A stretch of DNA of 64,000 nt from contig JAMDCQ010000010.1 in assembly GCA_023488905.1 (NCBI GenBank), positions 12 to 64,011 on the forward strand, read 5' to 3'. The notes under the pieces were generated by a model. It had not been told where the DNA came from and made no database searches. It worked only from the letters and a program-made list of their open reading frames with translations. The translations under genes and the position numbers were made by a program. Every line of letters begins with the position of its first letter. Position 1 is the first letter of the stretch. Shown in pieces: positions 1,200-58,300 of this stretch. The stretch comes from Candidatus Bathyarchaeota archaeon. GTDB lineage: Archaea; Thermoproteota; Bathyarchaeia; Bathyarchaeales; Bathycorpusculaceae.

Positions 1200-1243
1200 T
1201 AAGAGAAAAATACCTCAGAAAAATTGAAGGAAAAGATGGGGGT

Positions 1244-2758
1244 TTATGGTACTGTCCAGGGTAGTTGGCTTAGCATCGGTTGGATAAGCTCCAACACGAG
1301 GTTGGGGAACAAGCCGAAGATGAAGATGGCGACGACGAGGATGAACACTGGGATGAGGAGATATTTGTTCTCTTTGATGCGCGTGGTGACGCCGTCTTTT
1401 GGTGCTTTGCCATACATTATGTTAACGAGTCGGAATATGTAAGCCGTCTGCAACACACTGGTTAAGACGCCGATGATTGCCAGCCAAGTTAAATCAACAC
1501 TGATTGCCGCAGTGAACACGAAGTACTTTGCGATAAAGCCGCCCAATGGCGGGACACCTGCGAAGCTTAAGCCAGCGATGACAAGGGCTAAGCTGGACCA
1601 AGGCATCTTTTTGCCTACACCTGCAAAGTCGTCAAGTTTTTTGAATCCGTGGCGGTTTATGATGCCTACAGCCATGAATGCAAGGGCTGTGGTTAAGCTG
1701 CCGATCAGGAAGAAGTAGAGGTTTCCCTGCAAACCAAGTTCATTGGCGCTTGTGATGGCGACGAGGTTGTAGCCGACGTCTGCAACGCAGATGTACGCGA
1801 TTAAGCGTTTGATGTTGTTCTGTATGAGCGCGAATATGTTGCCCACGATCATTGTTAGCGCTGCAAGTGCTGCCATCATTAGTGTCCAGTCGAAGACGCC
1901 ACCGACTGAAGGTGGTAGGATGATGAAGAGTAAGATTCTGATTAGGATGTAGTAGCTGCCTTGGTCTACCAGTGCCGAGAGAAAAGCTGCGGATGGGGCT
2001 GGTGCAGCGGTGTAGGCGTCGGGTAGCCAGAAGTGGAAGGGCACGATTGCAGCTTCAATCGCGTAGCCTGCTGCGACGAAGACGAAGGCGATTATGAGCA
2101 GGTTCATGTCGGCGCCTGTTATGGTGCCGATGGCTTCGCGGACTGCGATGTAGTTGAGGCTGCCAGTTATGCCGTAAACGATTGAGAGCCCCAAAAGCAC
2201 GAAGGCTGAGGCGATGATGACCATGACTAGGTACTTTAGTGTGGCGTTGAGGCTGAAGGCATTTTTACGGTACAGCATCAGGAACGCGGCTGCGGCTGTG
2301 GCGGCTTCCCAGAAAATGAAGAATGTCAACAAGTCACCTGAAAGTACCGCGCCGACTAAAGCACCAGTTAATAGCAGCATGATTGCCATGTAGCGGTCTG
2401 AGGGGCGCTCTGCCGAATTAACGAAGAACACGGTGTATACCATTACTACTGCGGCTATTCCCACGATTATTATTGCCATGTAGAGCGCTATGGCATCAAT
2501 GAGGAAGGATGTTGCAATGGCAGGGTTTGATGTGCCGTCTAAGGTTAAGTTTAGCGGCGCGGGGTTAGCTACGCTGTAGTAGCTTAAGAAGAGGTTGACG
2601 ATGGTTATGCTTGCGATGGCGAAAACCGCAATAAACCACGCGGCGGTTAAGCCGGTTTTGTGGCTGGTTTTTCTTATCGCTCTAAAGATTGGAATTGTGA
2701 TTAGCGCTGCCACGATGAGTGTAAAGATTGGTAGTATGACGTCTAAGATTGTGACCAT
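1244..2758 (-). CDS. nuoN: NuoN-family antiporter-like membrane subunit of complex I-like operon
   Basis: 504-aa polytopic protein with NuoN/ND2-type blocks (WLPDAYTAAPAP, LKRLIAY). Last gene of the A-B-CD-H-I-J-K-L-M-N order. Confidence 0.88.
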   Translation of the reverse strand: MVTILDVILPIFTLIVAALITIPIFRAIRKTSHKTGLTAAWFIAVFAIASITIVNLFLSYYSVANPAPLNLTLDGTSNPAIATSFLIDAIALYMAIIIVGIAAVVMVYTVFFVNSAERPSDRYMAIMLLLTGALVGAVLSGDLLTFFIFWEAATAAAAFLMLYRKNAFSLNATLKYLVMVIIASAFVLLGLSIVYGITGSLNYIAVREAIGTITGADMNLLIIAFVFVAAGYAIEAAIVPFHFWLPDAYTAAPAPSAAFLSALVDQGSYYILIRILLFIILPPSVGGVFDWTLMMAALAALTMIVGNIFALIQNNIKRLIAYICVADVGYNLVAITSANELGLQGNLYFFLIGSLTTALAFMAVGIINRHGFKKLDDFAGVGKKMPWSSLALVIAGLSFAGVPPLGGFIAKYFVFTAAISVDLTWLAIIGVLTSVLQTAYIFRLVNIMYGKAPKDGVTTRIKENKYLLIPVFILVVAIFIFGLFPNLVLELIQPMLSQLPWTVP

Positions 2759-2759
2759 T

Positions 2760-4379
2760 CTATGCCACTGCTCCGAAGGTTACTGTTTGAATTAACTGCA
2801 CAAAGAACGTCGGGTAAATTCCAATCAAAACGACAAGCACCACCAAGATCGCTAGAGCCGCCTTCATGTAGTTAGGTATGTCAACGATTCTGTGTCCATG
2901 GCTCTCTGTCACTGGCGCTTCCGGTTGGCTTTGGCTTCCATGAGCGTCATGAGCAACTTGCACTGCGCCTTGCTCTTCTTTGAATTGCCCAAAGAAAACT
3001 TTAGAGATGAACCTAAGCGAGTAAGCCAACGAGAACACTGTTGCGATGAGCATCAACGCTGTTGGAATAATATAGAAGGCGCCGCCTGGGGACTGGATTA
3101 TTTGGAATGCACCCATGAAAATGAAGAATTCGCTGATGAAGCATGCCAATGGCGGTGCACCAGCGATGCTGAGGGCAGCTATCATTCCTGAGACTGTGGA
3201 GAAGGGCATCTTGCTTGCTAAGCCACCCATTTCGCGGATGTCTCTTTTCTCAGTTTGATGCATGACGCCGCCTGCGGTGAGGAAGAAAAGCCCCTTGCTG
3301 GCTGCGTGTGTAATGATGTGTAGCACAGTGCCGACGATTGCAAGGGCTATCGGCGAAGCCAATGCCACTGGGTTACCGCTGGCTAATGCCGCGGGGAATA
3401 ATGATAATCCAAACATTGTATAGCCCATGTGGGCGATGCTTGAGTATGCAATAACACGTTTGATGTCGTTTGCAACCAGCGATAATAGTGAGCCGAAGAA
3501 TGCTGTTACTACACCAATTATGGATAGTGCATAGAGGAAGTAAGTTCCGAACGATAACCCGACTGAGGGGAACACCATGCCGAAGGATAGGCGCAAGATT
3601 GCGTATGCTCCTGCGCTGATGATGACACCGCTTAGCAGGGCGGACATTGGTGCGGGGGCTTCTGAGTGTGCATCAGGGAGCCACATATGGACTGGAAAAA
3701 CTGCCATCTTGACTGCGAATCCGCCAGTTAGGGCGATTAGAATCCATTTTGCGATTTCCGAGTTTGCCGCTGTCGCCAAAATGCCTTGGGCGCTTAGCAT
3801 GTCGGTGGTTCCTGTTAGCCAGTAGGTTGCTCCGATTCCCAGCAAGACGAAGACGGCGCCTGCATGGGTGAATATGAAGAGTTTAAGCGCGGATTTGTAG
3901 CTGTTGCGGTAGCCCCATTCGCCGACTATGAAGTAGGCGGGTACGAGCATGAGTTCCCAGCAGAAGTAGAACAGGATCATGTTGCTGGTTAGGAAGACGC
4001 CTATTAAGCCAACGCTTAGCATGCATAGTAGGGCGTAGTAGACGGGGAGGTTCTTTTTGCCTGCCATGTAGTTGACTGAGTATAGGGCTGCGACGAAGAT
4101 GAGGACTAAGCTGATCATGGCTATGGAGACGCTTATGCCGTCAACGTAGAGGGCGAATTCGGTGCCGCTTAATTGTGGTATCCACTCATAGGTTTCTTTG
4201 TAGAAGTGATCAGCGCCCTGTATGGCGGGTATGGTCATTGCTAGAAGAGCTATGTTGATTAACGCGATTGCGGCGACGAAGCCTGCTGCGGCTTTAGTGG
4301 ATTTCTTTCCCGCTAAGTAGACAAAGGGGATGCTGATTGTTGGGATAGCGAATACGGACAGTAAGAGTGGTAGCGACAT
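2760..4379 (-). CDS. nuoM: NuoM-family antiporter-like membrane subunit
   Basis: 539 aa with WLPDAHSEAPAPMSALLSGV and IKRVIAYSSIAHMG blocks typical of NuoM/ND4. Separated from nuoN by 1 nt. Confidence 0.88.
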   Translation of the reverse strand: MSLPLLLSVFAIPTISIPFVYLAGKKSTKAAAGFVAAIALINIALLAMTIPAIQGADHFYKETYEWIPQLSGTEFALYVDGISVSIAMISLVLIFVAALYSVNYMAGKKNLPVYYALLCMLSVGLIGVFLTSNMILFYFCWELMLVPAYFIVGEWGYRNSYKSALKLFIFTHAGAVFVLLGIGATYWLTGTTDMLSAQGILATAANSEIAKWILIALTGGFAVKMAVFPVHMWLPDAHSEAPAPMSALLSGVIISAGAYAILRLSFGMVFPSVGLSFGTYFLYALSIIGVVTAFFGSLLSLVANDIKRVIAYSSIAHMGYTMFGLSLFPAALASGNPVALASPIALAIVGTVLHIITHAASKGLFFLTAGGVMHQTEKRDIREMGGLASKMPFSTVSGMIAALSIAGAPPLACFISEFFIFMGAFQIIQSPGGAFYIIPTALMLIATVFSLAYSLRFISKVFFGQFKEEQGAVQVAHDAHGSQSQPEAPVTESHGHRIVDIPNYMKAALAILVVLVVLIGIYPTFFVQLIQTVTFGAVA

Positions 4380-4381
4380 TT

Positions 4382-6313
4382 CTAGATTCCTCCGAAACCT
4401 ACAGTTAACACAATTAACACCATAATCAAGATGAAACCAAGCACAGCCGCAGCAACATAGTTCCTAAACGAGTCAGACGGACCTTTCTTGAGGGTCATAA
4501 CGTGACCGGGCGCGGCTGCGTCGCTGATGTCTGAGCCAACTTTGTCTGGGATGTGGGCAAATAGAGCGTTTTCGAAACGTGTAAGTGCCGCAGAGAAGCC
4601 GTTGATGCCTTTGGCTATGCCGTAGTAGAGGTCATCTATGAAGTAGGCGTGGTTTAAGATTGCAGTGAGCGGGTTTTTGCCTGCTGCGATTTTGCGGATG
4701 CCCATGAAGTTCTTGTAGTAGGACGCGTACGCCAACAGGAAGGCGGGCAAGAGAAGTAACAGGAATATGGGTGTTTCAGCGCTGGTGAAGGCTCCGAGTA
4801 ATGTGTGTTCAAGTTCGATGTGCATGAAACTGGCTATATATGGCTGCGCGATGCCCCAGACTATGCAGAGTGCCGCCAAGATTGCTGCTGGGACCAGCAT
4901 GATTTTGGGGGCTTCGTGAACGTGGATTTTTGAGATGTGCTCTGATGGTTTGCCCATGAAGACTAAGCTGAACATGCGAATACAGTAAGCGAACGTGATT
5001 GCAGTTGCAGCGAAGATAAGTATGGTTTGGATTAGGCTACCTGCGTCCATGACGCTTGTGAGGATTAAGCCTTTGCTGAAGAACGCTGCAAACGGTGGCA
5101 GTCCGCTTGTGGTAACAATCATGATAATCATTAAAGCGAATGTAAGAGGCATGGCTTTTTTGAGTCCGCCCATCAAGCGCATGTCTCGTGTACCCAACGC
5201 GTGTATGATGCCTCCCGCTAAGAGGAAACCGAGACCCTCGAAAAATGCGTGGCTAACCATGTGGAATAAACTGGCAAACCAACCCGTCGACATTGCAACG
5301 TCGGTGGTGTGTGCCATGGCTGTGCCTAAACCTGCCATCATGAAGCCGATTTGGCTAACGGTGGAGTAAGCGAGGACTCCTTTGATGTCGGTTGTCATGA
5401 GACCCAAGGTTGCGCCTATGAATGCGGTTATGACTCCGATCCAAGAGATTGTTGGGAACCAGTAAGGCTGGAGCGCCACAATTAGGGCTGGGGCTGCTGC
5501 GAAGATAAGTATGAATCTTGAAAGCAAGTAGATACCTGCTTTAACCATTGTTGCAGCGTGCAAAAGGGCGCTGACTGAGGTTGGGGCTTCCATCGCGCTG
5601 TAGAGCCAAGTGAAAAGTGGGAACTGGGCAGATTTCGCGACGGCGCCGCCTAAGACGAGGAAAGCTGTGATGACCATTAATTCTGTGTTGAAGACGCCTG
5701 ATTGGAGGCCTTCGATAACTCCGTGGAAGCTAAAGGTGCCAAACATGTAGAACAATATCGCAATCGCGGCGAGGAGCATGATGTCGCCGATGCGAGTCAT
5801 GATGAAAACTTTAACACCAGAGTGGATAGATTCGGGTTTTTTGTACCAGAAGCTAATCAAAGCGTAGCTGCATAAGCCCACCATTTCCCAGAAGATGAAC
5901 ATCTGGAGCATGTTGTCGGAGATTACTAGGCCGATCATGGAGCCGATGAAGAGCAGCAAGAGGTAGTAGTATCGGGTTAAGCCTTCTTCGCCTTTCATGT
6001 AGCCCTGCGAGTAAACAGCGATGATTAGGGCAAAGAACGCCACTAGGCAAGTGAAGAGGACGCTAAGGGAGTCGATGTATACGCCTGCCTCAACGAAGCC
6101 TGAGATCCAGGGAATGGTGTAGGTTATTGCTTCGCCTTCGCCTGACCAGACGCTGGGCACCAGTGAAAGCGCCAAGACGCCGACTATGCCTGCGATGGCT
6201 ATGACGAAGTAGTTTCGGGCTTTTTCACTGTATTTACCGATTACTGGGACAAATAGGCTTGCGATGAGTGGGATAATCCAGACGAACCATGCTGAGAATT
6301 CTTCGAGCATCAT
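4382..6313 (-). CDS. nuoL: NuoL-family antiporter-like membrane subunit
   Basis: 643 aa with FIFWEMVGLCSY and SALLHAATMVKAG blocks typical of NuoL/ND5/MrpA. Position in the operon fits. Confidence 0.88.
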   Translation of the reverse strand: MMLEEFSAWFVWIIPLIASLFVPVIGKYSEKARNYFVIAIAGIVGVLALSLVPSVWSGEGEAITYTIPWISGFVEAGVYIDSLSVLFTCLVAFFALIIAVYSQGYMKGEEGLTRYYYLLLLFIGSMIGLVISDNMLQMFIFWEMVGLCSYALISFWYKKPESIHSGVKVFIMTRIGDIMLLAAIAILFYMFGTFSFHGVIEGLQSGVFNTELMVITAFLVLGGAVAKSAQFPLFTWLYSAMEAPTSVSALLHAATMVKAGIYLLSRFILIFAAAPALIVALQPYWFPTISWIGVITAFIGATLGLMTTDIKGVLAYSTVSQIGFMMAGLGTAMAHTTDVAMSTGWFASLFHMVSHAFFEGLGFLLAGGIIHALGTRDMRLMGGLKKAMPLTFALMIIMIVTTSGLPPFAAFFSKGLILTSVMDAGSLIQTILIFAATAITFAYCIRMFSLVFMGKPSEHISKIHVHEAPKIMLVPAAILAALCIVWGIAQPYIASFMHIELEHTLLGAFTSAETPIFLLLLLPAFLLAYASYYKNFMGIRKIAAGKNPLTAILNHAYFIDDLYYGIAKGINGFSAALTRFENALFAHIPDKVGSDISDAAAPGHVMTLKKGPSDSFRNYVAAAVLGFILIMVLIVLTVGFGGI

Positions 6314-6633
6314 TGAGCTTCAACCTCGCTTTCTTCTTTCTCCGCGTTTTCCTGCATCTTTGCAATTATCTTTGAGAGGTCACCTGTCCCGTAACGCTTC
6401 GAAACCAAGACAAGCAACGCCAAGATTACGGCGCTAACGGCTGTGTCAACTGAGAACGCTAAAACCAGCAGTGCTTCTCCCAATCCCTGCGGTGAAGCAA
6501 GCATAACAAAGTTCAGCGTCGCCGCCGTTGCGATTAACTCGATTGATATGAAAACCTTGAGGAGTTGGCGATTGGTTAATAACCCGTAGATGCCGATTGC
6601 CAACATGACAAGCGCTAATATGACGAAGTCCAT
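6310..6633 (-). CDS. nuoK: NuoK-family small membrane subunit
   Basis: 107 aa with three TM segments. Sits between the J and L homologues and overlaps nuoL by 4 nt. Confidence 0.8.
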   Translation of the reverse strand: MDFVILALVMLAIGIYGLLTNRQLLKVFISIELIATAATLNFVMLASPQGLGEALLVLAFSVDTAVSAVILALLVLVSKRYGTGDLSKIIAKMQENAEKEESEVEAQ

Positions 6634-7089
6634 CTACTTCTTCCTCCGCTCATAGAGCACCACAGCAATTCCCAACGCAATCGTCAAAATAACTAACGCC
6701 TGCAACAAAACGTCAACGCCTCGGATGTCCCAGAGGGCAGTACCGAAATCGATGTCTGGTCCCACAGTGGTTTGGCCCGAAACTGAGAGGAAAATTGCGG
6801 GTAAAGAGAGAACGACGCCTGCGCCGATTAGGCCAGCGGTTTTGGCAGGGGAGGCTTTTTTGATTTGTTTTTCGCCTAGCATTTCACCTGAGAGGAATAG
6901 GATGGCTAAGGTTCCGACGCCGACTGCGAATTGGAAAATCGCAGCGTAGATGGCGCCGCTGAAAACGTAAATTATGGCTGTGAAGAGGAAAGTGCCTGAT
7001 AAGGCTGCAACGGAGTAGACGACTTCGTCGAGGAATAGGGCGAGTATGGCTGAGATTATTAGTCCGATGGCTAAGATTTCGAAGATCAT
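6634..7089 (-). CDS. nuoJ: NuoJ-family membrane subunit
   Basis: 151-aa hydrophobic protein with NuoJ-like N-terminal helices (AIFQFAVGVGTLAILFL). Operon position fits. Confidence 0.75.
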   Translation of the reverse strand: MIFEILAIGLIISAILALFLDEVVYSVAALSGTFLFTAIIYVFSGAIYAAIFQFAVGVGTLAILFLSGEMLGEKQIKKASPAKTAGLIGAGVVLSLPAIFLSVSGQTTVGPDIDFGTALWDIRGVDVLLQALVILTIALGIAVVLYERRKK

Positions 7090-7535
7090 TGTGATGCCCT
7101 CTTTTTGTATTCTGGCTTCATAACCAGCGACCCTTTATCGGTTGTCGCTAACTCGTAGAGGTCACTTTGTTTTATTGCGTCTCGGGGACAGCTTTCAACG
7201 CATTGATAGCAGAAAACGCATTTGTTTAAGTCGATTTGTGGACGCATTTTGCCCTCAACTTCAACGATTTCGATTGCTTTTGCAGGGCAGTCTCTGACGC
7301 AGACGTGACAACTTGAACCCCTCATGGCTTTGATGTCCACTCTGAAGTCCTCGCCGCATCCGAAGTCGATGGCGTTGCAGGCTTTGATTTCGTAGACCAA
7401 TTTACCTCTGCTTTCGGCAGGCAGCGTTGGCTTCACAAATGGGTACTTTGTGGTTGCAGGTTTAGTGAATAAATGGGATACCGTTCGCTTAAAGATTGGA
7501 GATATCCGCGATTTTGACTTCTTCTTTTCTGCCAT
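7086..7535 (-). CDS. nuoI: NuoI-family 2x[4Fe-4S] ferredoxin-type subunit
   Basis: Two CxxCxxCxxxCP motifs (CHVCVRDCP, CVFCYQCVESCP). I place the start at the ATG at 7535 (MAEKKK), 3 nt after the nuoH stop. The longer 7730 ORF would overlap nuoH. Confidence 0.85.
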   Translation of the reverse strand: MAEKKKSKSRISPIFKRTVSHLFTKPATTKYPFVKPTLPAESRGKLVYEIKACNAIDFGCGEDFRVDIKAMRGSSCHVCVRDCPAKAIEIVEVEGKMRPQIDLNKCVFCYQCVESCPRDAIKQSDLYELATTDKGSLVMKPEYKKRASQ

Positions 7536-7540
7536 CCTGT

Positions 7541-8557
7541 TTACACTCCAATTCCGAATGGATGATACACCCAAGTTACCAGAGCCACAGTTAACATCAG
7601 TGAGAGCAACGCTGCGGGTAGCAGTATTTTCCAGTTGCCGGTTAAGACTTGATCGATACGTAAGCGGGCCACCACTGTGGTTATGTACTCGCTGATTACT
7701 ACGACGACTAGGAGTTTTAGTACAAACCAAAGCGTGTAGAAGAACCAGTCCAACCCAAAGAACACTGGACCGCTGGAGCCGCCCAAGAACAACAAAACCA
7801 CCAATGCTGAGCCGAACACAACTTGGACATCGCGTGTTAAGTGGAGGAAGGCTAGTTTGGCGCCTGTGTATTCGGTTTCTAAACCGCCGACGAGCTCAGA
7901 TTCCGAGTGGGGAACGTCGAAGGGGTCGCGCTCCAATTCCGCTTGTATGGTAATTATAAACAGCACAAACGCCCATGGAGCCAATAAGATGAAGGGAAGG
8001 GATTGGCTTCCGGCTATGGTGGCGATGTTTAAGCTGCCAGCGATGAAAGCAGGAGTCAATGCGAGTATGTAGAGTGGAATGTCGTAGCCCAAAAACTGGG
8101 TTAAGACTCTTGCTGAACCGATTGTGCCATAGGGGTTCGCTGACGCCCAACCTGCCAAGAACAGAAGGAAGTTCGCAATGGTCGCGAAGGTTAGAATGAT
8201 AATCAAGTCGCCGTCGAAGCCGCCCGTTGAGAGAACGCTTGCGCCGTCGATAGGTAAAAAGCACATGGCGAAAACCATGATGGCAAACGCCAAAAGGGGA
8301 GAGTAGCGGAACACGAGTTTTTTGGTGTCCCTTGGCTCAATGTCTTCCTTGGTTAGGAGTTTGATGAAGTCTGCGAGGGGTTGAAGGATACCGCCGGGGC
8401 CAGCTACCATGGGGCCGACGCGGTTTTGTATGCGTGCTTCAAGTTTGCGTTCTACCCAATCACAGAACAACGTCAAGAACAGGATGAAGGTGAAGCCTGG
8501 AAAAACCAGAATTCGGAAGATCAACATTGGGTCAAGGACGAAATCCATGGTTATCAC
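7541..8557 (-). CDS. nuoH: NuoH-family membrane subunit
   Basis: 338 aa with RKLEARIQNRVGP, GILQPLADFIKL and ESELVGG blocks typical of NuoH/ND1/HycD. Confidence 0.88.
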   Translation of the reverse strand: MITMDFVLDPMLIFRILVFPGFTFILFLTLFCDWVERKLEARIQNRVGPMVAGPGGILQPLADFIKLLTKEDIEPRDTKKLVFRYSPLLAFAIMVFAMCFLPIDGASVLSTGGFDGDLIIILTFATIANFLLFLAGWASANPYGTIGSARVLTQFLGYDIPLYILALTPAFIAGSLNIATIAGSQSLPFILLAPWAFVLFIITIQAELERDPFDVPHSESELVGGLETEYTGAKLAFLHLTRDVQVVFGSALVVLLFLGGSSGPVFFGLDWFFYTLWFVLKLLVVVVISEYITTVVARLRIDQVLTGNWKILLPAALLSLMLTVALVTWVYHPFGIGV

Positions 8558-10125
8558 CTGTCAGTGCATGAGAAGCAAGGATCCAAGCTAACAAAGTTGC
8601 TCGGTACATCAGCTATGCTCTCGCCAATTGCAGTCTGTAGGAATGACGGGATGTTAGCGAATGTTGGAGTGCGGATTTTTACTCGTTCAGGCATGTCTGT
8701 GCCGTTGCTCTTTACGTAGTAGAAGAGTTCGCCTCTGGGTGCTTCTAAGCTGCAAACTGCTTCGCCAACTGGTACGGAGCGCGCTACCTCAACCTTGATT
8801 GGGCCCGCGGGTAAGTGGTCGATGGCATATTCGATTATATTTATGCTTTCTTCAACTTCGTCCATGCGAACGTTCATTCGTGCCCAAACATCGCCGTCAT
8901 CGTAAACTATTTCCTTGAATGGTATGTCGTTGTAGGCTTCGTAGGGTAGGTCTTTTCGGACATCCATGTCTACGCCTGATCCTCTTGCAACTGGACCCAC
9001 AACAGACAACTTTAACGCGTCTGTTCGGCTTAATGTGCCGACGTCTTTCATGCGGAGCCGCAGTGTGGGTTCTTCGAGGTAGATTTTTCGGTAGAATGGC
9101 AACTTGCCCCGAAGGTCTGCGAGGACAGATTTGATTTTGGGAATTTGCTCGCTAGTTATGTCTCTTCGGACGCCGCCTATAGTTATGAGTGAGCCGTAGA
9201 CGCGGTTTCCGCTGGTTAACTCGATGAGATCCATAATTGGTTCACGGTCTCTCCAGAAATACTGGAACACTGTTTCGTAACCGATTTCTAAACCTGCGTG
9301 ACCTAAAGTTAAGAGGTGGCTGTGTAGTCTGTTTAGCTCCATAGCTATGACTCTTAGGTATCGGGCGCGTTCTGGAACGGCTGGCTTTAAGATTTTTTCT
9401 ACTACACCAACGAAGCCGTATGCATGAGCGGGGTTGCAGATGCCGCAAACCCGTTCAACCAGATAAATGTCTTGCAAGTAGGTTCGTAACTCAGTGGTTT
9501 TCTCAATTCCTCGGTGAACGTAACCGATACGTGGTTCAACTCTAGTTACGGTTTCGCCGTCAACAGTGACTGAGAACTTTTCTGGCTCCAAAAGTGCAGG
9601 GTGCTGTGGACCAATTATGATTTTTACTTGTCTACCCTCGGCAGCTTTGTTAGCTTCCCTCTCTGGAGTTGGAACAAGTTTTACGCTAGAGAGGTTGATG
9701 TCTTTTCGCAGTGGATAGACGCCGTCTGGCCAGTTTTCGGGGAGAACGAAGTGCCCATTGAGTTCATTTCCTTCAAAAACAACGCCCATGAGGTCTGTTA
9801 CTTCGAGTTCATGAAAGGTTGCGCCAGTGTGAATATCGGTTAGGGTTTTGATTTTCGGGTTAGCTCTTGGCACTTCTGCTTTGATTGTAAAGAATGACTT
9901 TGCTGTGTGAATATGGTAGTATATACCCAAGTTTTCTCCGAAATCTAAACCTGTGATAGAGGTTATGCCTGTTTTTTCGTCGGCGTCGATCATGGCTTTG
10001 AGGATGTCGTGGTGTAAACCGTTGTTTGCCACAAATGAGGCTTCGCCGTTTACTCCTTTTTGAATTTGGACTTTATCGCCGAATTTAGATTGAACTAAAC
10101 TTATGAAATCTACACTATTGGGCAT
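8554..10125 (-). CDS. nuoCD: fused NuoC-NuoD homologue (HycE-like) retaining [NiFe]-hydrogenase large-subunit cysteine ligands
   Basis: 523 aa. The N-terminal ~150 aa are NuoC-like, followed by GPQHPALLEPE. It has ERVCGICNPAH (C227/C230, nt 9436-9447) and a C-terminal LDPCFSCTDR (C517/C520, nt 8566-8577), which match the L1/L2 NiFe-binding motifs. Confidence 0.85.
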   Translation of the reverse strand: MPNSVDFISLVQSKFGDKVQIQKGVNGEASFVANNGLHHDILKAMIDADEKTGITSITGLDFGENLGIYYHIHTAKSFFTIKAEVPRANPKIKTLTDIHTGATFHELEVTDLMGVVFEGNELNGHFVLPENWPDGVYPLRKDINLSSVKLVPTPEREANKAAEGRQVKIIIGPQHPALLEPEKFSVTVDGETVTRVEPRIGYVHRGIEKTTELRTYLQDIYLVERVCGICNPAHAYGFVGVVEKILKPAVPERARYLRVIAMELNRLHSHLLTLGHAGLEIGYETVFQYFWRDREPIMDLIELTSGNRVYGSLITIGGVRRDITSEQIPKIKSVLADLRGKLPFYRKIYLEEPTLRLRMKDVGTLSRTDALKLSVVGPVARGSGVDMDVRKDLPYEAYNDIPFKEIVYDDGDVWARMNVRMDEVEESINIIEYAIDHLPAGPIKVEVARSVPVGEAVCSLEAPRGELFYYVKSNGTDMPERVKIRTPTFANIPSFLQTAIGESIADVPSNFVSLDPCFSCTDR

Positions 10126-10615
10126 TTTGTTTTACCTCCTCAACTATTGGGGCAGGCTCAGCCTTTGGAGCTCCAGCCTGTTTTTTCTGCTTAGGCGGGT
10201 TTATGGCGCTGAGTAGCTTAACAACTCCATCGATGATTGCTTCGGGACGGGGGGGGCAACCCGGTATGTAAGCGCTTACGGGAACCACTTTGTCGACTCC
10301 GCCGACGACACTGTAGTTTCCCTCAAAGACGCCGCCGCTACAGGCACATGCACCGATAGCGACAACAAATTTAGGTTGCGGCATCTGGTCATAGACGCGT
10401 TTCAGTCGTTCAGCACATTGGTGCGTGACAGCACCAGTAACCAATAAAACGTCAGCGTGGCGGGGTGAAGGTTCAAGTTTTATGCCGAAACGTTCAACGT
10501 CATATTTTGGTGTGAGCAGAGCAACGATTTCTATATCGCAGCCGTTGCAGGCACCAGAGTTAAAGTGAAGAACCCAAGGAGACTTGACGCGCGCCCACGT
10601 TTTTGTGTCAGTCAC
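10115..10615 (-). CDS. nuoB: NuoB-family subunit of group 4 [NiFe]-hydrogenase small-subunit type
   Basis: 166 aa with GACNGCDIEIV, GACACSGGVF and IPGCPPRPE. The first motif is the hydrogenase CxxC type rather than the CCxxE of canonical NuoB. Confidence 0.88.
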   Translation of the reverse strand: MTDTKTWARVKSPWVLHFNSGACNGCDIEIVALLTPKYDVERFGIKLEPSPRHADVLLVTGAVTHQCAERLKRVYDQMPQPKFVVAIGACACSGGVFEGNYSVVGGVDKVVPVSAYIPGCPPRPEAIIDGVVKLLSAINPPKQKKQAGAPKAEPAPIVEEVKQNAQ

Positions 10616-10944
10616 TGATCTTTACCTCCTTCAAGGAGGACCACTCCCGCCGCGAGGATTATACCTAAATAGAGAATCAGTAGGAGAGGGTTTGTTGCTG
10701 AAATTGCAAACGCTGCAAACGCGAGAACTAGTACTGAAGCGTCAAAGATTACGAAGTAAATTAGGTACTTGTAGAGTGAGACGTTGATTTTGAGACCTTG
10801 GAAGGTGACTTTCTCTCCGCAGGCGTAGGCAGCTTGTTCGTTTTCGCTTATAACGGTTTTTGGAGCAGATCTTTTTCCTATATAGTAGATTGCGAGAGTT
10901 GCGACAAAAATTAAAACGAAAGCGACGAGCGCTTCAACAATCAT
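10612..10944 (-). CDS. nuoA: NuoA-family membrane subunit
   Basis: 110 aa with YACGE and FVIFDAS, which resemble the NuoA YECG and FLIFDVE blocks. First gene of the conserved order. Confidence 0.75.
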   Translation of the reverse strand: MIVEALVAFVLIFVATLAIYYIGKRSAPKTVISENEQAAYACGEKVTFQGLKINVSLYKYLIYFVIFDASVLVLAFAAFAISATNPLLLILYLGIILAAGVVLLEGGKDQ

Positions 10945-11165
10945 GCTGTTTTCTCTCCGTTAAAGGTCGTACCCATCAAGTCTGCCTCAAGGGAAGAGCC
11001 AATTTGGCACTTGTTATAACCGAATGCGTCTAAACGAATGTTATTAAGGGTTTCTGAAAAGCAACTAGACAAATGAACAGTACCGTCGAACATCGCTAAT
11101 GGGTAAATTGATGAAGAAATGCCATGCTTACACATGGTGCCTAGCATACTCTCTCCCATCCGCAT
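10941..11165 (-). CDS. small hypothetical ORF translationally coupled to nuoA
   Basis: 74-aa ORF whose stop overlaps the nuoA ATG (ATGA). No recognisable motif. Confidence 0.25.
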   Translation of the reverse strand: MRMGESMLGTMCKHGISSSIYPLAMFDGTVHLSSCFSETLNNIRLDAFGYNKCQIGSSLEADLMGTTFNGEKTA

Positions 11166-11315
11166 CTGCTAATTGCTCTCCTATACTGCCCCGAGATTGT
11201 TCACTAAAAGCACTACACTTGCATTTAAATTTTGAGAAAACAAACAGTTAAAATTTCATGTTTTCTTCAAAGATTCAACGTGTAAATTAAATCATACTGC
11301 ACAATGTCCAGCGGT

Positions 11316-12419
11316 CTACACCGAGATTTCATCGCTTAACCCATTCTCAGGATATGGGAACAGATGTGACTTCTCTAAGGGGTAAGTGATTGTAACTTCC
11401 TGACCGATACTAATCCAGTCTTCAGCTAAAGAAGGCCGACTAATAACGAAGCGGTCACCGTTCTCAAGCCGAACCTCATATCGGACAACAGTTCCCTCAA
11501 AAGTGGTTTTATCGATTTTACCCTGCAAACCATTCGCTACTCTAACGTGGCCACTCTTCATCTCGCAAGTTTCAGGTCTAATCGCTAAAACAACACGCTC
11601 GTTGAGCTTTATGTTCCTCTCGTTAAATGCCTTAACTTTTAAGCCCTGCCTTAACTCGATTTCCGCAGTATCACCGTCCAACGAGGTAATGTAGCCTTCA
11701 ACAAGGTTGGATTCACCGATAAAGAAAGCTACAAACAGGCTGTTGGGATGCATATAGAGTTCTTTTGGGGTTCCAATCTGGATGATTTTTCCTTTCTTCA
11801 TAACCGCGATGCGATCAGAAATCGACATAGCTTCCGCTTGGTCATGAGTAACGTGAATCGCGGTTAATTTGAGGTCTTTTGCCATTCGGCGAATTTCGTA
11901 TCGGATGTCGTTGCGGACTTTAGCGTCCAGTTGCCCCAGAGGTTCATCCAACAGCAGAGTTTTTGCGCCAGCAGCCAGCGCACGAGCGACCGCTATGCGT
12001 TGCATCATGCCGCCGCTGAGTTCACTGGGGTAAGCATTTAGCCGTTCATCGAGTTTGACGAGTTCAAGCACTTCGTGACCAATCGTTTCAGATTGCTTTG
12101 CGTCATAGTTCTTAACTTTGGGGCCATACAGGACATTGCTCCAAGCGGTCATATGAGGGAACAGGGCGAAAGTTTGGAAGACGAAGCCTATGTCGCGGTC
12201 TTCTGGGGGGTCTTTGTCGACTCTTCGGTCGCCGATGTAGATTTCGCCGCCGTCTGGGTCAATCAGTCCAGCTATAAGTCGGAGAAGAGTGGTTTTGCCG
12301 CAGCCGCTTGGACCCAATAGCGAGAAGTATTCTTGGTCATGGATGGTTAAGCTGACGTGGTCTAAGGCGTAGAGTTTTCCATATTTTTTGACAACGTTTA
12401 CTACTTTTACGTCTGGCAT
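11316..12419 (-). CDS. ABC importer ATP-binding protein (PotA/FbpC/CysA-like, C-terminal TOBE-like domain)
   Basis: Walker A GPSGCGKTT, signature LSGGMMQR and Walker B LLLDEP. The ~120-aa C-terminal extension is typical of importer ATPases. Confidence 0.9.
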   Translation of the reverse strand: MPDVKVVNVVKKYGKLYALDHVSLTIHDQEYFSLLGPSGCGKTTLLRLIAGLIDPDGGEIYIGDRRVDKDPPEDRDIGFVFQTFALFPHMTAWSNVLYGPKVKNYDAKQSETIGHEVLELVKLDERLNAYPSELSGGMMQRIAVARALAAGAKTLLLDEPLGQLDAKVRNDIRYEIRRMAKDLKLTAIHVTHDQAEAMSISDRIAVMKKGKIIQIGTPKELYMHPNSLFVAFFIGESNLVEGYITSLDGDTAEIELRQGLKVKAFNERNIKLNERVVLAIRPETCEMKSGHVRVANGLQGKIDKTTFEGTVVRYEVRLENGDRFVISRPSLAEDWISIGQEVTITYPLEKSHLFPYPENGLSDEISV

Positions 12420-12470
12420 ACCTTGTCTTCTCCTTTTGTTTGGTTTGGGGTGTTTTTATTGGTTATCATA

Positions 12471-14357
12471 CTAAACTTTTCCCTTTCTAGTTAAGAGCCG
12501 CAGGGTCAACAGAACGATGAAGCTGAACAGGATAAGCAATCCGCATGCTAAACCTACATTTAATGCGTTGACGCCTTCGATAGGTGAAATTGTGCCTCTG
12601 ACTGAGTTAACCCAGTTCACTATCAAAACAGGCGCAGTCTGTAACTGCGTGGCTACAGCCAATGTTGCACCCGTTTCGCTTACGCTTCGGGTTAAAACGA
12701 TGATTGCACCTGAAAGGACGGAGTACTTTGTTATTGGCCAAACAATTGTGCGGAAAACAGTTAGGGGTTTTGCACCTAAAGTTTTAGCGGCTTCTTCCAT
12801 GTCCACGCTTATGCGCTCCATCGCGGCGGACATAGAGCGCACGAAGTATGGGTAAGTTATTGCTAAGTGAGCAAAAACCAACAGTACAAACTCGGGAACT
12901 CCGGGAACGTTTGACCAGAAGAATTTTAGCGAGACACCCAGAGCTATCGAGGGCACGATGATTGGGATGTTGATTAATGTGTCAAGGATGGATGAGAACC
13001 ATTTACCGAAGGTTTTGCGTGCAATTAAAATCGCCATAGGTAACCCCAGAGCGATGCCCAACACCGTAACTACAGCGGCTAATCCGTAGGACAATGTGAG
13101 GCTCTGCCAGAAGCTAGCCCAGATGCCTGCACCTGTAAACGCCTCAACTAAGGTGTTTCCTGTCGCGATTGCTTGGAAAGCAGGCAAAGCTACAAACATC
13201 GAAGGGATCAACACTATTACAAAGAAAACTGCTAAAGCAATGCCGTTTCGGGTCCAAGCACCAGTCTTGTAGCTGAGTTTCTTCTCAAATGTAGGCAACC
13301 CGTGACCGAATGGAAGCTTTAGTCTTTGCCCAACTACACGAATTAATACGAAGATGATTAAGGACACAACTATGAGGATTAGACTTGCAAAAACGGTTGC
13401 GCCTTCATAGGTTCCTTGAGTGATAGCACCACTTTTGAACTGATTGCTTACTGTTTGCATGAAAACTGGACCATTGAGAAAAACCCCTGCAGCAACTATG
13501 AAAGTCGCGCCAGTTTCTGAGAGCGACCTTGCAAAAGCTAACGTGAAAGCTGCTATCAGTGAGGGCTTAATAATTGGGAACGTCACGGTCCGAGAAGCGG
13601 TTAGTGGCGGAGCGCCAAGGGTTCTAGAGGCACGTTCATACTCCATCTTGTAGTCGAGCATTGCACCTACGACGACGCGAACCACTACGGGAAATGAAAA
13701 AGTGAAATGCAGAACCATAACAAGAAGCCAACCGGGAGAGATAAACGGTTGCCCAAACAAGTCTGATATGCCGCCGCTTGAACTCCAGAACAAAAGAAGC
13801 GAATAACCCAAAGCCGCGGTAGGCACAACGAAAGGCAAATCCGCCAAAGTATCCAAAATTGTAAGCCACCTTGATTTTCCGCGGGTGATAAGCCACGCGA
13901 GCGGAACCCCTGCCAAGAGGTCAAGAGCCGCAACAACCAAACCGATGACAAACGAGGCTCCGATGGCGCCTAAAGCGGTGTTCATCAACTCGGGGTTGCC
14001 AAGGATACTATCTATGGAGCCAACTTTCGTTAATATGCCAATAATTGGGGGGATGAGGATTAAGGCAAAAAAGATTATGACGGCGGAGAGATAGAGGGTG
14101 TACTTTAGGGGTTTTTTGGAGGATAAACGATTAAGTGTGTTTGAGGCTTTGCTAAGCAAGGTGCCGCTCCTTTGGTTTACGCGCTTTTTTCTCTCAAAAG
14201 AAATCTTAATTGAGGGTTCCACTATATTAGTTGTTACATAGAAAGGGCTTCTTTCTTCATAGATTTGGCTTTTGATATATAGCCTACCTGTACCAAAAAA
14301 GCAGAAAAAGGCAACCAATGTCCAGAGGCGGGATTTGTTCAATCCGTTTGTACCCAC
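12471..14357 (-). CDS. ABC importer permease, fused double MetI-type domain (FbpB/ThiP-like)
   Basis: Two internal permease halves, each with an EAA-like loop (ASRTLGAPPL, AAKTLGAKPL). The true start is uncertain because the N-terminal ~80 aa look non-homologous. Confidence 0.82.
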   Translation of the reverse strand: MGTNGLNKSRLWTLVAFFCFFGTGRLYIKSQIYEERSPFYVTTNIVEPSIKISFERKKRVNQRSGTLLSKASNTLNRLSSKKPLKYTLYLSAVIIFFALILIPPIIGILTKVGSIDSILGNPELMNTALGAIGASFVIGLVVAALDLLAGVPLAWLITRGKSRWLTILDTLADLPFVVPTAALGYSLLLFWSSSGGISDLFGQPFISPGWLLVMVLHFTFSFPVVVRVVVGAMLDYKMEYERASRTLGAPPLTASRTVTFPIIKPSLIAAFTLAFARSLSETGATFIVAAGVFLNGPVFMQTVSNQFKSGAITQGTYEGATVFASLILIVVSLIIFVLIRVVGQRLKLPFGHGLPTFEKKLSYKTGAWTRNGIALAVFFVIVLIPSMFVALPAFQAIATGNTLVEAFTGAGIWASFWQSLTLSYGLAAVVTVLGIALGLPMAILIARKTFGKWFSSILDTLINIPIIVPSIALGVSLKFFWSNVPGVPEFVLLVFAHLAITYPYFVRSMSAAMERISVDMEEAAKTLGAKPLTVFRTIVWPITKYSVLSGAIIVLTRSVSETGATLAVATQLQTAPVLIVNWVNSVRGTISPIEGVNALNVGLACGLLILFSFIVLLTLRLLTRKGKV

Positions 14358-16878: not shown

Positions 16879-17204
16879 CTTGAGTACAGAGTATCAATAC
16901 ACAACCATATAAACCCTAACACATAACCCAAGCATACCAAAACACACCCAAACGCAACAACAAACATGAAACTCTATGAAAATAAACACCAAACCATATC
17001 AAAAACGCAAAAAACGCCTCAAAAACAAACTGTACAACACATCAACAGAAAAATCACCGCCTCCCTTACCGACAATAAACAAAGACAAAAGCGCATGGAT
17101 GAAACAAACAAACCAGTACATTAGGAACATTTACAATGAGACAACTTTGCTAACTTATAGCGATTAACCAATGGGGTAGATAAGGCATAACGGGATCATT
17201 AAAG

Positions 17205-17278
17205 TGCGGTAACCGGGATTTGAACCCGGGTCCTAGACTTGGCAAGCCTATGTACTAACCAAGCTGTACTATTACCGC
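17205..17278 (-). tRNA. tRNA-Gly (anticodon GCC)
   Basis: Hand-folded cloverleaf. Acceptor GCGGUAA/UUACCGC, D stem GUAC/GUAC, anticodon stem UAGGC/GUCUA with loop UUGCCAA, and T arm CCGGG-UUCAAAU-CCCGG. Discriminator A, no encoded CCA. Confidence 0.85.
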
Positions 17279-17634: not shown

Positions 17635-17712
17635 GCGGTCGTAGTCTAGTTTGGTCTAGGACATCAGCCTGCCACGCTGACGACCCGTGTTCAAATCCCG
17701 GCGACCGCACCA
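17635..17712 (+). tRNA. tRNA-Gly (anticodon GCC), second divergent copy, CCA encoded
   Basis: Acceptor GCGGUCG/CGACCGC, anticodon stem UCAGC/GCUGA with loop CUGCCAC, and T arm CCGUG-UUCAAAU-CCCGG with one U-C mismatch. Discriminator A followed by CCA. Confidence 0.8.
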
Positions 17713-57513: not shown

Positions 57514-58293
57514 ATGGTGACAAGAATGAAAAACAAAAATGAAGAGGTAAAGAAAACAGTAAAGAAAGCCTACTCCAAAATCGCCACAAACAGCAATTCC
57601 TGTTGCTGCCAATGCGGCTGCGGAACCCTTGACAAACAAACTGTCAAAAAAGTCTCTAAAAGCATCGGGTACTCCGAAGAAGAAATGAACGCTGTGCCCG
57701 AAGCAAACCTCGGCTTAGGTTGCGGAAACCCAACTGCCTTTAGCAGCATCAAGGAAGGTGACACCGTTCTTGACTTGGGAAGCGGTGCTGGCTTTGACTG
57801 TTTTTTGGCATCCAAAAAAGTTGGCCAAAACGGTAAGGTCATCGGGTTAGATATGACTGAGGAGATGGTTGCTAAAGCTCGGCTTCTAGCCAAAGAGCAC
57901 GGCTACGCAAACGTGGAGTTTAAGTTGGGCGATATTGAAAAGATGCCAATCGACGATGGCTCTGTTGATGTTATAATAAGTAATTGTGTTATCAATCTCG
58001 CGCCTGACAAGTTGAAAGTGTTCAAAGAAGCGTATCGTGTGCTTAGGAGCGGCGGCAAAATGTATGTTTCAGACATAGTTCTGCTTGGAAAGCTTACTGA
58101 TGAGCAGTTAAAAGATGAAGACTTGCTTTCTGGATGCGTCGCTGGGGCACTGCAGAAGGATGGTTACATAGTTAAAATACGGCAGGCAGGCTTCAAAGTA
58201 AAAATCCTCGGCGAAGACAAAGAAATAAGCAAAACGCAATACAGCGGAATAGCCCTCGAGAGCATAAAAATTGAAGCAACAAAACTGGGTTGA
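57514..58293 (+). CDS. arsM: arsenite S-adenosylmethionine methyltransferase
   Basis: N-terminal Cys cluster [12 protein letters not shown] motif [11 protein letters not shown], and LSGCVAGAL with the conserved Cys. Confidence 0.85.
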
Positions 58294-58300
58294 TAAAAAA

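Follow-up and report, generated by a model that had tools for sequence, protein, structure and literature searches.

A probable Hfo-type [NiFe] hydrogenase on a complete complex I/Fpo-like chassis in a member of the Bathyarchaeia

An 'Fpo-like 11-subunit [NiFe] hydrogenase', Hfo, was described in Bathy-6 Bathyarchaeia by Loh, Hervé and Brune (2021; PMC7886697), who report a fused hfoCD carrying the L1 and L2 motifs and place the enzyme in HydDB subgroup 4g. Complex I-like group 4 [NiFe] hydrogenases (4j/4m/4p/4q) were reported in 2024 from Heimdallarchaeia (bioRxiv 10.1101/2024.07.04.601786). A search of the literature found no biochemistry of the Heimdallarchaeia enzymes and, in the accessible work including the newer papers, no biochemical characterisation of Hfo or other subgroup 4g enzymes. 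The 11 core subunits, their order and the full L/M/N arm are common to the present locus, to Fpo and Fpo-like complexes (Methanosarcina, Methanothrix and Methanomassiliicoccales) and to bacterial Nuo/Nqo. MBH has one antiporter-like subunit together with an Mrp-type Na+ module, while in Hyc the only antiporter-like subunit is HycC, and the complex docks a formate dehydrogenase. Both MBH (Pyrococcus furiosus, PDB 6CFW) and Hyc (Escherichia coli formate hydrogenlyase, PDB 7Z0S) share with our locus the [NiFe] motifs and the small-subunit CxxCxxE. The locus lies on the minus strand (10944..1244) of the window, by which we mean the whole 64 kb stretch of DNA analysed, and is very probably an Hfo orthologue, that is, a group 4 (HydDB 4g) energy-converting hydrogenase on a complete complex I/Fpo chassis. 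A preliminary description had left open whether the subgroup was already classified; it is, as Hfo of subgroup 4g (PMC7886697), and the hydrogenase reading is supported yet not new. Lineage, gene order, fused hfoCD and L1/L2 motifs are shared with the published Hfo, FpoFO and NuoEFG are absent from both, and we see no essential difference from what the accessible text describes, the window holding another species-level orthologue. The same operon is carried by WQVG01000063.1 (MAG Emb289P1_bin127), listed in that source as phylotype 8 of lineage TB2, whose CD protein is 81% identical to that of the window.

Ten tightly packed ORFs, with overlapping or adjoining start and stop codons, encode homologues of NuoA, B, fused C-D, H, I, J, K, L, M and N in the order A-B-CD-H-I-J-K-L-M-N, and this ten-gene order recurs in 20 complete loci from Bathyarchaeia species genomes. 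All expected Pfam families exceeded their gathering scores, Oxidored_q4 (NuoA) and Oxidored_q3 (NuoJ) included. The 11 of the '11-gene operon' first proposed holds for subunits if the fused C and D are counted as two; the genes number ten. ORFs and Pfam matches agree with the complex I gene order, the presence of NuoA and NuoJ homologues and the absence of nuoEFG, and no nuoEFG, hox or hyp genes were found within the whole 64 kb. NuoA and NuoJ, though present as claimed, are not strict markers of complex I, as NuoA-like and NuoJ-like subunits occur beyond it. The operon opens with hfoA (10612..10944, minus strand, as are all features below; 110 aa; PF00507 26.3 bits, cut-off 23.3), which is 72-88% identical among Bathyarchaeia loci, followed by hfoB (10115..10615; 166 aa; PF01058 123.9 bits), a homologue of hydrogenase small subunits and NuoB, and by hfoCD (8554..10125; 523 aa), which according to Pfam and its motifs joins a NuoC-like domain to a [NiFe] large subunit. 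The hfoH ORF (7541..8557; PF00146 288 bits) opens at GTG 8557; its true start is likely the ATG at 8548, giving 335 aa where relatives have 335-336 aa. The NuoI homologue hfoI (7086..7535; Pfam), with two [4Fe-4S] clusters and a Lys-rich N-terminus, has the same 149-aa model in relatives, and it is followed by hfoJ (6634..7089; 151 aa; PF00499 35.5 bits, cut-off 33.2) and hfoK (6310..6633; 107 aa; PF00420).

The remaining three genes encode antiporter-like subunits: hfoL of NuoL type (4382..6313; 643 aa; TIGR01974 NDH_I_L 420.8 bits, cut-off 407.5), hfoM of NuoM type (2760..4379; 539 aa; TIGR01972 321 bits, cut-off 263.8) and hfoN of NuoN type (1244..2758; 504 aa; TIGR01770 249.6 bits, below the cut-off of 332.6). 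HfoL covers the TIGR01974 profile end to end (positions 4-629 of 630), has a C-terminal extension forming a lateral helix, and keeps E143, K227, K258 and K414 invariant. In HfoM, E142, K224 and E417 are invariant and the TM8 Lys is replaced by S255; in HfoN, E151 and K411 are canonical, and the TM7 and TM8 Lys are replaced by E235 and Q266, both invariant in 23 species. HfoK conserves E32 and has V66 in place of the second canonical Glu. The membrane arm thus carries non-canonical charged residues and departs from complex I in the TM7 Glu of HfoN and in the lack of a TM8 Lys in HfoM and HfoN.

HfoCD contains only five cysteines, of which four are the [NiFe] ligands. The L1 motif is ERVCGICNPAH (RVC227GIC230NPAH) and L2 is LDPCFSCTDR (DPC517FSC520TDR), directly followed by the stop codon; the codon positions first given for C227 (nt 9445-9447), C230 (9436-9438), C517 (8575-8577) and C520 (8566-8568) are exact. 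Pfam places a PF00374 NiFeSe_Hases match at residues 205-272. RxCGICxxxH is kept in 120/120 close homologues (72-93% identity) and DPCFSCTDR forms the C-terminal end in 119, the remaining one being a partial sequence two residues short. Conservation of the cysteines had been set beforehand as a test, and all four are invariant in these 120 homologues and in 31 species-level genomes; judged from the alignments, this is not chance. The second-sphere hydrogenase residues E180 (in HPALLEPEKF), H234, D515 and the terminal R523 are likewise invariant. That HfoCD ends directly after DPCxxCxxR stands, while the parallel drawn with Mbh-type subunits comes solely from the deposited PDB chain 6cfw_L, which may be a processed form. 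By comparison, E. coli HycE (569 aa) runs past its L2 motif and has hycI within the hyc cluster. HycI removes the C-terminal tail of HycE. A NuoC-like domain is likewise found at the N-terminus of HycE, and among solved structures MbhL and HycE are the best sequence matches and HycE the best fold match: phmmer against PDB sequences gave 290 bits for MbhL and 280 for HycE, above Nqo4 (245) and MbsL (176), and the AlphaFold model of HfoCD (pLDDT 74.6, with low confidence at 162-208 and 488-523, which hold E180 and the L2 motif) matched HycE 7z0s_E best in the PDB (TM 0.80). HfoCD scores 351.5 against the NCBIfam equivalog cut-off of 360 for NuoD and 304.9 against that of 600 for FpoD, below both, and, as the preliminary description warned of routine annotation, public records label such proteins 'NADH-quinone oxidoreductase subunit C/D'.

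The HfoB motif is SGAC23NGC26DIE29, that is, CxxCxxE as described and not the CCxxE of complex I NuoB; it aligns with the hydrogenase small-subunit type of HycG (CNGCEIE) versus CCYVE in NuoB. The [4Fe-4S] ligands of HfoB are predicted to be C23, C26, C90 and C120. In HfoI, the first cluster motif is unusual (C52-x22-C75xxC78xxxC82P).

In a bootstrapped distance tree (NJ, 200 replicates, on anonymous cluster representatives and not a curated maximum-likelihood tree), the D domain of the window groups among four-cysteine hydrogenase subunits. A split between NuoD plus Methanosarcina FpoD on one side and the window protein with all four-cysteine sequences on the other appears in 197/200 replicates (194-200/200 overall), so the window protein does not nest in the NuoD/FpoD clades; its nearest representatives at 50% clustering are almost all four-cysteine sequences. 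Promethearchaeota/Hodarchaeota MAGs supply the second-closest representative, a fused CD protein with about 50% identity whose gene lies in an A-B-CD-H-I cluster. With the Heimdallarchaeia enzymes the locus shares a peripheral arm of NuoB, C, D and I without NuoEFG, a [NiFe] site in NuoD and a predicted ferredoxin partner (bioRxiv 10.1101/2024.07.04.601786), whereas the NuoL lateral helix is a feature of the window operon and a 37-residue C-terminal extension one of the Asgard CD protein. Group 4 hydrogenases of Anaerolineae (44-51% identical) also have fused CD, [NiFe] motifs and adjoining B, H and I; their loci, however, follow the order L-M-B-CD-H-I-hycI with a HycI-type protease gene, and A, J and N homologues were not detected in them, with K in one.

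The reading as a NiFe hydrogenase with a full complex I membrane arm, and not an NADH-quinone oxidoreductase, is supported because the four cysteines are invariant, quinone-binding residues are replaced, HfoB has CxxCxxE and the D domain lies apart from NuoD/FpoD; the PDB scores point the same way. Those refuting tests of the preliminary description that could be run, including clade membership and cysteine conservation, all favoured this reading. The complete set and order of complex I subunits and the NuoL and NuoM profile scores above NCBIfam cut-offs would also suit a ferredoxin-oxidising Fpo-like or Nuo-like respiratory complex (as in Methanothrix and Methanomassiliicoccales) with a membrane or other non-H+ acceptor, in which the cysteines form another metal site or a relic. 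D-domain identity to Nqo4 (40%) is near that to MbhL (44%), and a 2024 Bathy-6 study regards clusters of this kind as Fpo/Nuo-like, with PQQ or lignin as speculative acceptors. The statement that NuoD and FpoD have lost the cysteines holds for NuoD, which keeps none, but Methanosarcina FpoD retains two of the four, and therefore partial retention without hydrogenase activity occurs. We nevertheless regard such a complex as unlikely: none of the four cysteines, nor E180, H234, D515 or R523, varies in lineages as far apart as 58% identity, the quinone-binding His38 and Tyr87 of Nqo4 align with L179 and G228, the protein stands outside the NuoD and FpoD clades, the 2024 study reports no known quinone pathway, and methanophenazine biosynthesis genes were not found in Bathy-6 by Loh et al. 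(PMC7886697).

An NAD(H)-linked instead of ferredoxin-linked ion-translocating hydrogenase, with the module docking a NuoEFG/HoxEFU-like diaphorase encoded elsewhere, is suggested by the Bathyarchaeum tardum paper, which notes a NuoEFG-like cluster adjoining Hox and proposes that NADH might feed the complex, and by the co-occurrence of Hfo with Hox in the accessible part of Loh et al. (PMC7886697). It appears very unlikely, given that the operon, the 64 kb window and the flanking DNA of about 40 related loci contain no E, F or G gene, that the cited EFG-like genes are part of the Hox cluster, and that electron transfer from NADH to H2 thermodynamically needs energy input. An Mbx/MBS-like sulfane-sulfur (polysulfide) reductase, though of the same superfamily and similar fold (rank 28 among structural matches), is highly improbable, with MbsL scoring far below MbhL, the two-cysteine ('CDCD'-type) sequences forming a clade separate from the window protein, and the locus lacking the Mrp-type Na+ module that MBH and MBS have.

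In the favoured hydrogenase reading, HfoI, with its two [4Fe-4S] clusters, would exchange electrons with ferredoxin, and HfoB would relay them through its one [4Fe-4S] cluster to a NiFe(CN)2CO centre. The D domain of HfoCD would hold this centre by C227, C230, C517 and C520, and 2H+ + 2e- and H2 would interconvert there. HfoH, A, J and K would couple this redox step to the movement of H+ or Na+ across the membrane by the three antiporter-like subunits L, M and N, which the HfoL lateral helix would clamp. Physiology would set the direction: reduced ferredoxin may drive H2 evolution and build an ion gradient, or a gradient may drive H2-dependent ferredoxin reduction for Wood-Ljungdahl acetogenesis, the latter being the proposal in the available text of Loh et al. 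(PMC7886697). In about 40 related loci, no hyp maturation gene lies 10 kb or less from the operon, and the supplement of that paper, as far as available, lists only scattered hypA/E/F, in draft MAGs. Solitary or rearranged paralogues occur among relatives, one genome having a solitary hfoCD copy. These paralogues, the HfoI cluster-1 motif, the L/M/N charge pattern and the small upstream ORF described below were not found in the accessible part of Loh et al. (PMC7886697).

A BRE/TATA-like archaeal element, AAAATTTAAATGC (11221..11233), precedes the hfoA ATG by about 277 nt and lies within a block at least 80% conserved in the nucleotide alignment of 28 Bathyarchaeia loci; it is a putative operon promoter. 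Between the two, a small conserved ORF (10941..11165; 74 aa) has a stop overlapping the hfoA start (ATGA). One reading frame is uninterrupted over 65-90 codons in about 25 of these 28 loci, and the other two contain 3-13 stops. The peptide is merely 23-45% identical between loci, mismatches by codon position are flat (0.42/0.45/0.47 versus 0.22/0.11/0.53 in hfoA), and searches of Pfam and Rfam gave no match; it may be a leader that is translated, or a small protein that evolves fast. At the other end, the sequence directly after the hfoN stop is T-rich (TTTT, TTTTT, TTTTT; 1201..1240) and is plausibly an archaeal oligo-T terminator.

The complex-I-ordered operon with a [NiFe]-type catalytic core is confirmed, and the system is already known as the Hfo of Bathyarchaeia. 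The operon runs on the reverse strand from 10944 to 1244 as ten open reading frames whose stop and start codons overlap or abut, namely hfoA (10612-10944), hfoB (10115-10615), the fused hfoCD (8554-10125), hfoH (7541-8557, with the true start likely at 8548), hfoI (7086-7535), hfoJ (6634-7089), hfoK (6310-6633), hfoL (4382-6313), hfoM (2760-4379) and hfoN (1244-2758); a T-rich tract lies downstream of the hfoN stop. All ten products match their expected complex-I families above Pfam gathering thresholds (for instance HfoA with PF00507, NuoA, and HfoJ with PF00499, NuoJ), HfoCD has a further match to the N-terminal part of PF00374, the nickel-dependent hydrogenase family, and by Pfam and NCBIfam the eleven conserved complex-I core subunits are all represented in the order A-B-CD-H-I-J-K-L-M-N. 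The extent and gene order given in the preliminary description therefore stand, while its count of eleven genes does not, because C and D are fused and the number of reading frames is ten. HfoB, HfoL and HfoM pass the NCBIfam subfamily cut-offs for NuoB, NuoL and NuoM, and the D domain reaches none of the equivalog cut-offs for NuoD and FpoD (351.5 against 360; 304.9 against 600). HfoL aligns to positions 4-629 of the 630 in the NuoL profile and therefore includes the C-terminal lateral-helix extension.

The predicted hydrogen-active site is complete in HfoCD. Only five cysteines occur in its 523 residues, and four of them form the [NiFe] ligand set: C227 and C230 in ERVCGICNPAH and C517 and C520 in LDPCFSCTDR, at exactly the nucleotides reported earlier and with the stop codon directly after the final arginine. 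Both motifs (RVCGICNPAH for L1 and DPCFSCTDR for L2) fit the group 4 patterns C[GS][ILV]C[AGNS]xxH and [DE][PL]Cx[AGST]Cx[DE][RL]. Conservation of the four cysteines in close homologues was evaluated against 5.8 billion protein clusters, among which at least 120 relatives with 72-93% identity were retrieved; among the matches listed, RxCGICxxxH is present in all 120, and DPCFSCTDR forms the C-terminal end in 119, the remaining one being a partial sequence. Those with an organism name nearly all come from Bathyarchaeia or Bathyarchaeota. Across 31 species-level genomes, too, the ligand columns are invariant, and an alignment of 54 sequences adds H175-F184 (HPALLEPEKF), H234, D515 and R523 to the invariant positions. 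The glutamate of HPALLEPEKF is the proton-relay glutamate, and the second-sphere residues E180, H234, D515 and R523 align with those of Pyrococcus furiosus MbhL and E. coli HycE. Since HfoCD ends at the L2 arginine, no C-terminal endopeptidase step is expected. Tails of 7-54 residues are found on the CD proteins of the sister lineage P0121, an Asgard relative and many others. That second Bathyarchaeota lineage (L004, ENA k141_787223, represented by P0121) shares the order A-B-CD-H-I-J-K-L-M-N, and its CD is 58% identical to that of the window; unlike the window's family, it extends 30 residues past the L2 arginine.

The electron-transfer subunit next to this site is also of the hydrogenase type, as had been proposed from its GACNGCDIE motif. 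In a three-way alignment, AC23NGC26DIE29 of HfoB corresponds to CNGCEIE in E. coli HycG rather than to SCCYVE in NuoB, and the tandem-cysteine CCxxE motif of cluster N2 in NuoB is absent from HfoB. The residues C23, C26, E29, C90 and C120 align with HycG and fit a CxxCxxE...C...CP pattern for one predicted [4Fe-4S] cluster.

Comparison of HfoCD with homologues of known function points in the same direction. Against solved structures, sequence scores were highest for MbhL (290 bits) and HycE (280), followed by Nqo4, the NuoD of T. thermophilus (245), and MbsL of the sulfur-reducing MBS (176). In complex I, His38 and Tyr87 of Nqo4 hold the quinone head group; these positions align with L179 and G228 of HfoCD, and both quinone-holding residues are therefore absent. 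Among the best 150 hits of an exhaustive HMMER search of 1.84 billion cluster representatives, nearly all of the closest carry the four cysteines. A neighbour-joining tree (138 sequences, 359 columns, 200 bootstraps; a distance method only) paired the window with P0121 in 174 of 200 replicates, the next closest sequences being an Asgard (Promethearchaeota/Hodarchaeota) fused CD protein and a Moorella glycerini protein. The large subunit lies outside the NuoD/FpoD clades: 21 NuoD-type sequences, E. coli NuoCD and Nqo4 among them, were split from the window in 200/200 replicates, and the NuoD side of that split holds no four-cysteine sequence. The split was recovered in 197/200 replicates when the clade with Methanosarcina FpoD (P0201) was added to NuoD, and in 194/200 when a two-cysteine 'CDCD' clade was added as well. 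In this distance tree, the protein thus branches among hydrogenase large subunits, apart from NuoD, FpoD and MbxL. Fold alone does not separate a hydrogenase from complex I: the AlphaFold model of HfoCD (pLDDT 74.6, with low confidence at the N-terminal sheet of the D domain and in the L2 region) gave HycE as its best Foldseek match with a TM score of 0.80, and E. coli NuoCD scored 0.77.

Taken on sequence grounds, these results support a membrane-bound [NiFe] hydrogenase on a complex-I chassis, with predicted activity. The main alternative, a respiratory Fpo-like complex that delivers electrons to an acceptor other than protons, would share the gene order; an invariant and complete NiFe site, the lack of the quinone ligands and the tree placement all speak against it. 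A sulfur reductase resembling MBS is unlikely in view of the sequence scores and the clade placement. A variant linked to NADH through Hox or NuoEFG-like subunits is improbable and finds no support in the gene neighbourhoods. The absence of nuoEFG held up, in that neither NuoEFG nor FpoF was found in the operon or in any reading frame of at least 90 amino acids in the 64-kb window, and Pfam searches of the ten operon proteins and 50 other reading frames across the 64 kb did not detect NuoE, NuoF, NuoG, Hox or Hyp families.

The preliminary description had left open whether this subgroup was already classified, and it is. Loh et al. (PMC7886697) name the complex Hfo, assign its orthologues to HydDB 4g and define it in lineage TB2, and their supplement enumerates the genes from hfoA, B, CD, H and I onward, C and D being fused, with the entry 'hfoCD NiFe4/PF00329'. 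Both Hfo and the operon of the window have the order A-B-CD-H-I-J-K-L-M-N without FpoFO or NuoEFG, and both have a fused CD with L1 and L2. Scanning GTDB species genomes recovered about 38 Bathyarchaeia loci with 58-88% identity, 20 of them with all ten genes in the same order and the others broken by contig ends or frameshifts. One of these (L018, contig WQVG01000063.1) belongs to MAG Emb289P1_bin127, a TB2 genome (phylotype 8 of that lineage); the CD of this locus and that of the window share 81% identity, and the subunits before the contig end (A through L) are 70-85% identical with the order kept. By sequence and gene order, the operon is hence judged orthologous to the TB2 loci on which the definition of Hfo rests. 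A 2024 study contributed two 'Bathy6' MAGs at 84-86% identity, so that the window belongs to Bathy-6 or close to it. The cultivated Bathyarchaeum tardum also has the cluster, and its authors cite Hfo. The operon is present as well on the complete Bathyarchaeia chromosomes OY970286.1 and OY969706.1. Comparable Complex-I-like [NiFe] hydrogenases with shorter membrane arms are described in Heimdallarchaeia (2024 preprint, bioRxiv 10.1101/2024.07.04.601786). A literature search returned no biochemical characterization of Hfo, of any 4g enzyme, or of the B. tardum or Heimdallarchaeia counterparts. The operon at L033 (JBLNCY010000038.1, 'Methanocella sp.') and the CD protein P0005 ('Candidatus Acidoferrales bacterium') are 85-86% identical to those of the window, and these labels probably reflect mis-binned or mislabelled MAG contigs. 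A different layout is seen in bacterial fused-CD relatives from Anaerolineae and NC10 MAGs (L039-L048, L052 and L053; 38-51% identical), which have the order L-M-B-CD-H-I-hycI, a more conventional group 4 arrangement with the maturation protease gene (hycI) adjoining.

Hfo-type enzymes are an evolutionarily important class, being the living systems that most clearly bridge energy-converting hydrogenases and complex I: the full membrane arm and the gene order of complex I occur together with an intact predicted hydrogen-producing site. This significance was recognized in 2021 and widened to Asgard archaea in 2024; the window adds one more Hfo orthologue and a few small observations. In anoxic sediments few archaeal groups are more abundant than Bathyarchaeia, and routine mis-annotation of Hfo as NADH-quinone oxidoreductase distorts their metabolic models. 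The earlier warning against such annotation was well placed: relatives are annotated as 'NADH-quinone oxidoreductase subunit C/D', and also as 'Ni,Fe-hydrogenase III large subunit'.

To judge from homology with MBH, FHL and complex I, ferredoxin would dock at HfoI, whose N-terminus is rich in lysine, and electrons would pass from the two HfoI clusters via the HfoB cluster to the NiFe site in HfoCD, where protons and H2 would be interconverted. HfoH, HfoA, HfoJ and HfoK would link this redox reaction to the three antiporter-like subunits. Loh et al. (PMC7886697) favour gradient-driven ferredoxin reduction by H2 for acetogenesis, with the reverse direction as the alternative. The first [4Fe-4S] motif of HfoI (residues 52-82) is without the first cysteine of CxxCxxCxxxCP (GSSC75HVC78VRDC82P). 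A family-conserved C52 lies 22 residues upstream in an insertion of about 20 residues, whose second cysteine, C59, is not conserved; C52 is predicted to supply the missing ligand of cluster 1. Maturation genes were sought with E. coli HypA-F and HycI by tblastn in the window and about 50 related loci, where the only matches were hycI beside the Anaerolineae/NC10 clusters; neither the 64-kb window nor, in related loci, the 10 kb around the operon contained a hyp gene. Table S2 of Loh et al. (PMC7886697), as far as it is accessible, has hypA, hypE and hypF only scattered among Bathy-6 draft MAGs, and the supplement of the Bathyarchaeum tardum paper has no hyp entries.

Conserved charged residues support a membrane arm that is probably functional. 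The TM5 glutamate is conserved in L, M and N, the TM7 lysine in L and M, and E32 in the NuoK homologue, and the conserved TM12 residue is lysine in L, glutamate in M and lysine in N. Several positions depart from complex I: in HfoN, E235 and Q266 replace the TM7 and TM8 lysines; in HfoM, S255 replaces the TM8 lysine; and in HfoL, K258 (TM8) and E359 stand where E. coli NuoL has threonine and lysine, respectively. Across 22-23 species these substitutions in L, M and N vary little or not at all, with one exception each at HfoM S255 and HfoL E359. The second glutamate position of HfoK is V66, and valine is found there in 25 of 26 species.

Upstream of hfoA, a 74-amino-acid reading frame (10941-11165, reverse strand) overlaps with its end the hfoA start codon (ATGA). 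A stop-free frame of 65-90 codons recurs at about 25 of 28 Bathyarchaeia loci, with 3-13 stops in the other frames. Its peptide is 23-45% identical between loci, with mismatch fractions of 0.42, 0.45 and 0.47 at the three codon positions, and a conventionally constrained protein was ruled out because the mismatches are flat across codon positions. The small frame had no Pfam match and the leader matched no Rfam family; it may be a leader that is translated, or a small protein that evolves fast. A conserved TATA-like element, AAAATTTAAATG, lies at 11233-11221 on the reverse strand, about 277 nt upstream of hfoA. The small frame and the membrane-arm charge departures could be features beyond the published description of Hfo. 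On this reading, the frame would be a real, undescribed first hfo cistron, either a leader controlling hfoA-N or a fast-evolving accessory or assembly protein, and the family-invariant departures (HfoN Glu235/Gln266, HfoM Ser255, HfoL Lys258/Glu359) would give a coupling unlike that of complex I, for example with another ion stoichiometry or a bias to gradient-driven ferredoxin reduction. We consider this reading speculative and rather unlikely.

Two related genomes carry additional copies of Hfo genes. A solitary hfoCD, 88% identical to that of the window and with L1 and L2 intact, is present at L007 (9842-11560 of CAWGYA010000008.1) in MAG MFD02416.bin.1.292, which also has a full hfo operon (L017). 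Masking or an artefact was suspected because only CD matched, and this was rejected, the locus being an intact hfoCD whose neighbouring genes are different ones. Its probable start codon is a GTG with a GGGG ribosome-binding site ahead of it; the copy lies between genes for cysteine desulfurase (iscS), a NifU-like protein (iscU) and a DsrE-like protein and a tightly coupled nitroreductase gene, and no other Hfo subunit gene was found near it in L007. A rearranged paralogous cluster is found at L029 (9501-19589 of CAZTRN010000013.1), the second locus of that MAG being L028. In it, B-CD-I share one strand, H and A lie on the opposite strand, and K and three antiporter-like genes come next; its identity to the window is 83% for B, 66% for CD and only 32-41% for the other subunits.

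Within the window, the region immediately upstream of the operon holds an ABC transporter pair (11316-14357, reverse strand; an ABC_tran protein with TOBE_2 and a fused BPD_transp_1 permease), and this pair, together with PadR and AsnC-type regulators further upstream, is syntenic in three related loci (L005, L006 and L057). Two tRNA-Gly(GCC) genes lie on opposite strands about 360 nt apart, at 17204-17278 (reverse) and 17635-17712 (forward), with Rfam tRNA model scores of 67 and 59 bits. A 1399-amino-acid MMPL-family membrane protein is encoded at 44193-48392 on the reverse strand, and a PQQ-type beta-propeller protein, of a family reported to be expanded in Bathy-6 (PMC11697101), at 58271-59566 on the forward strand.
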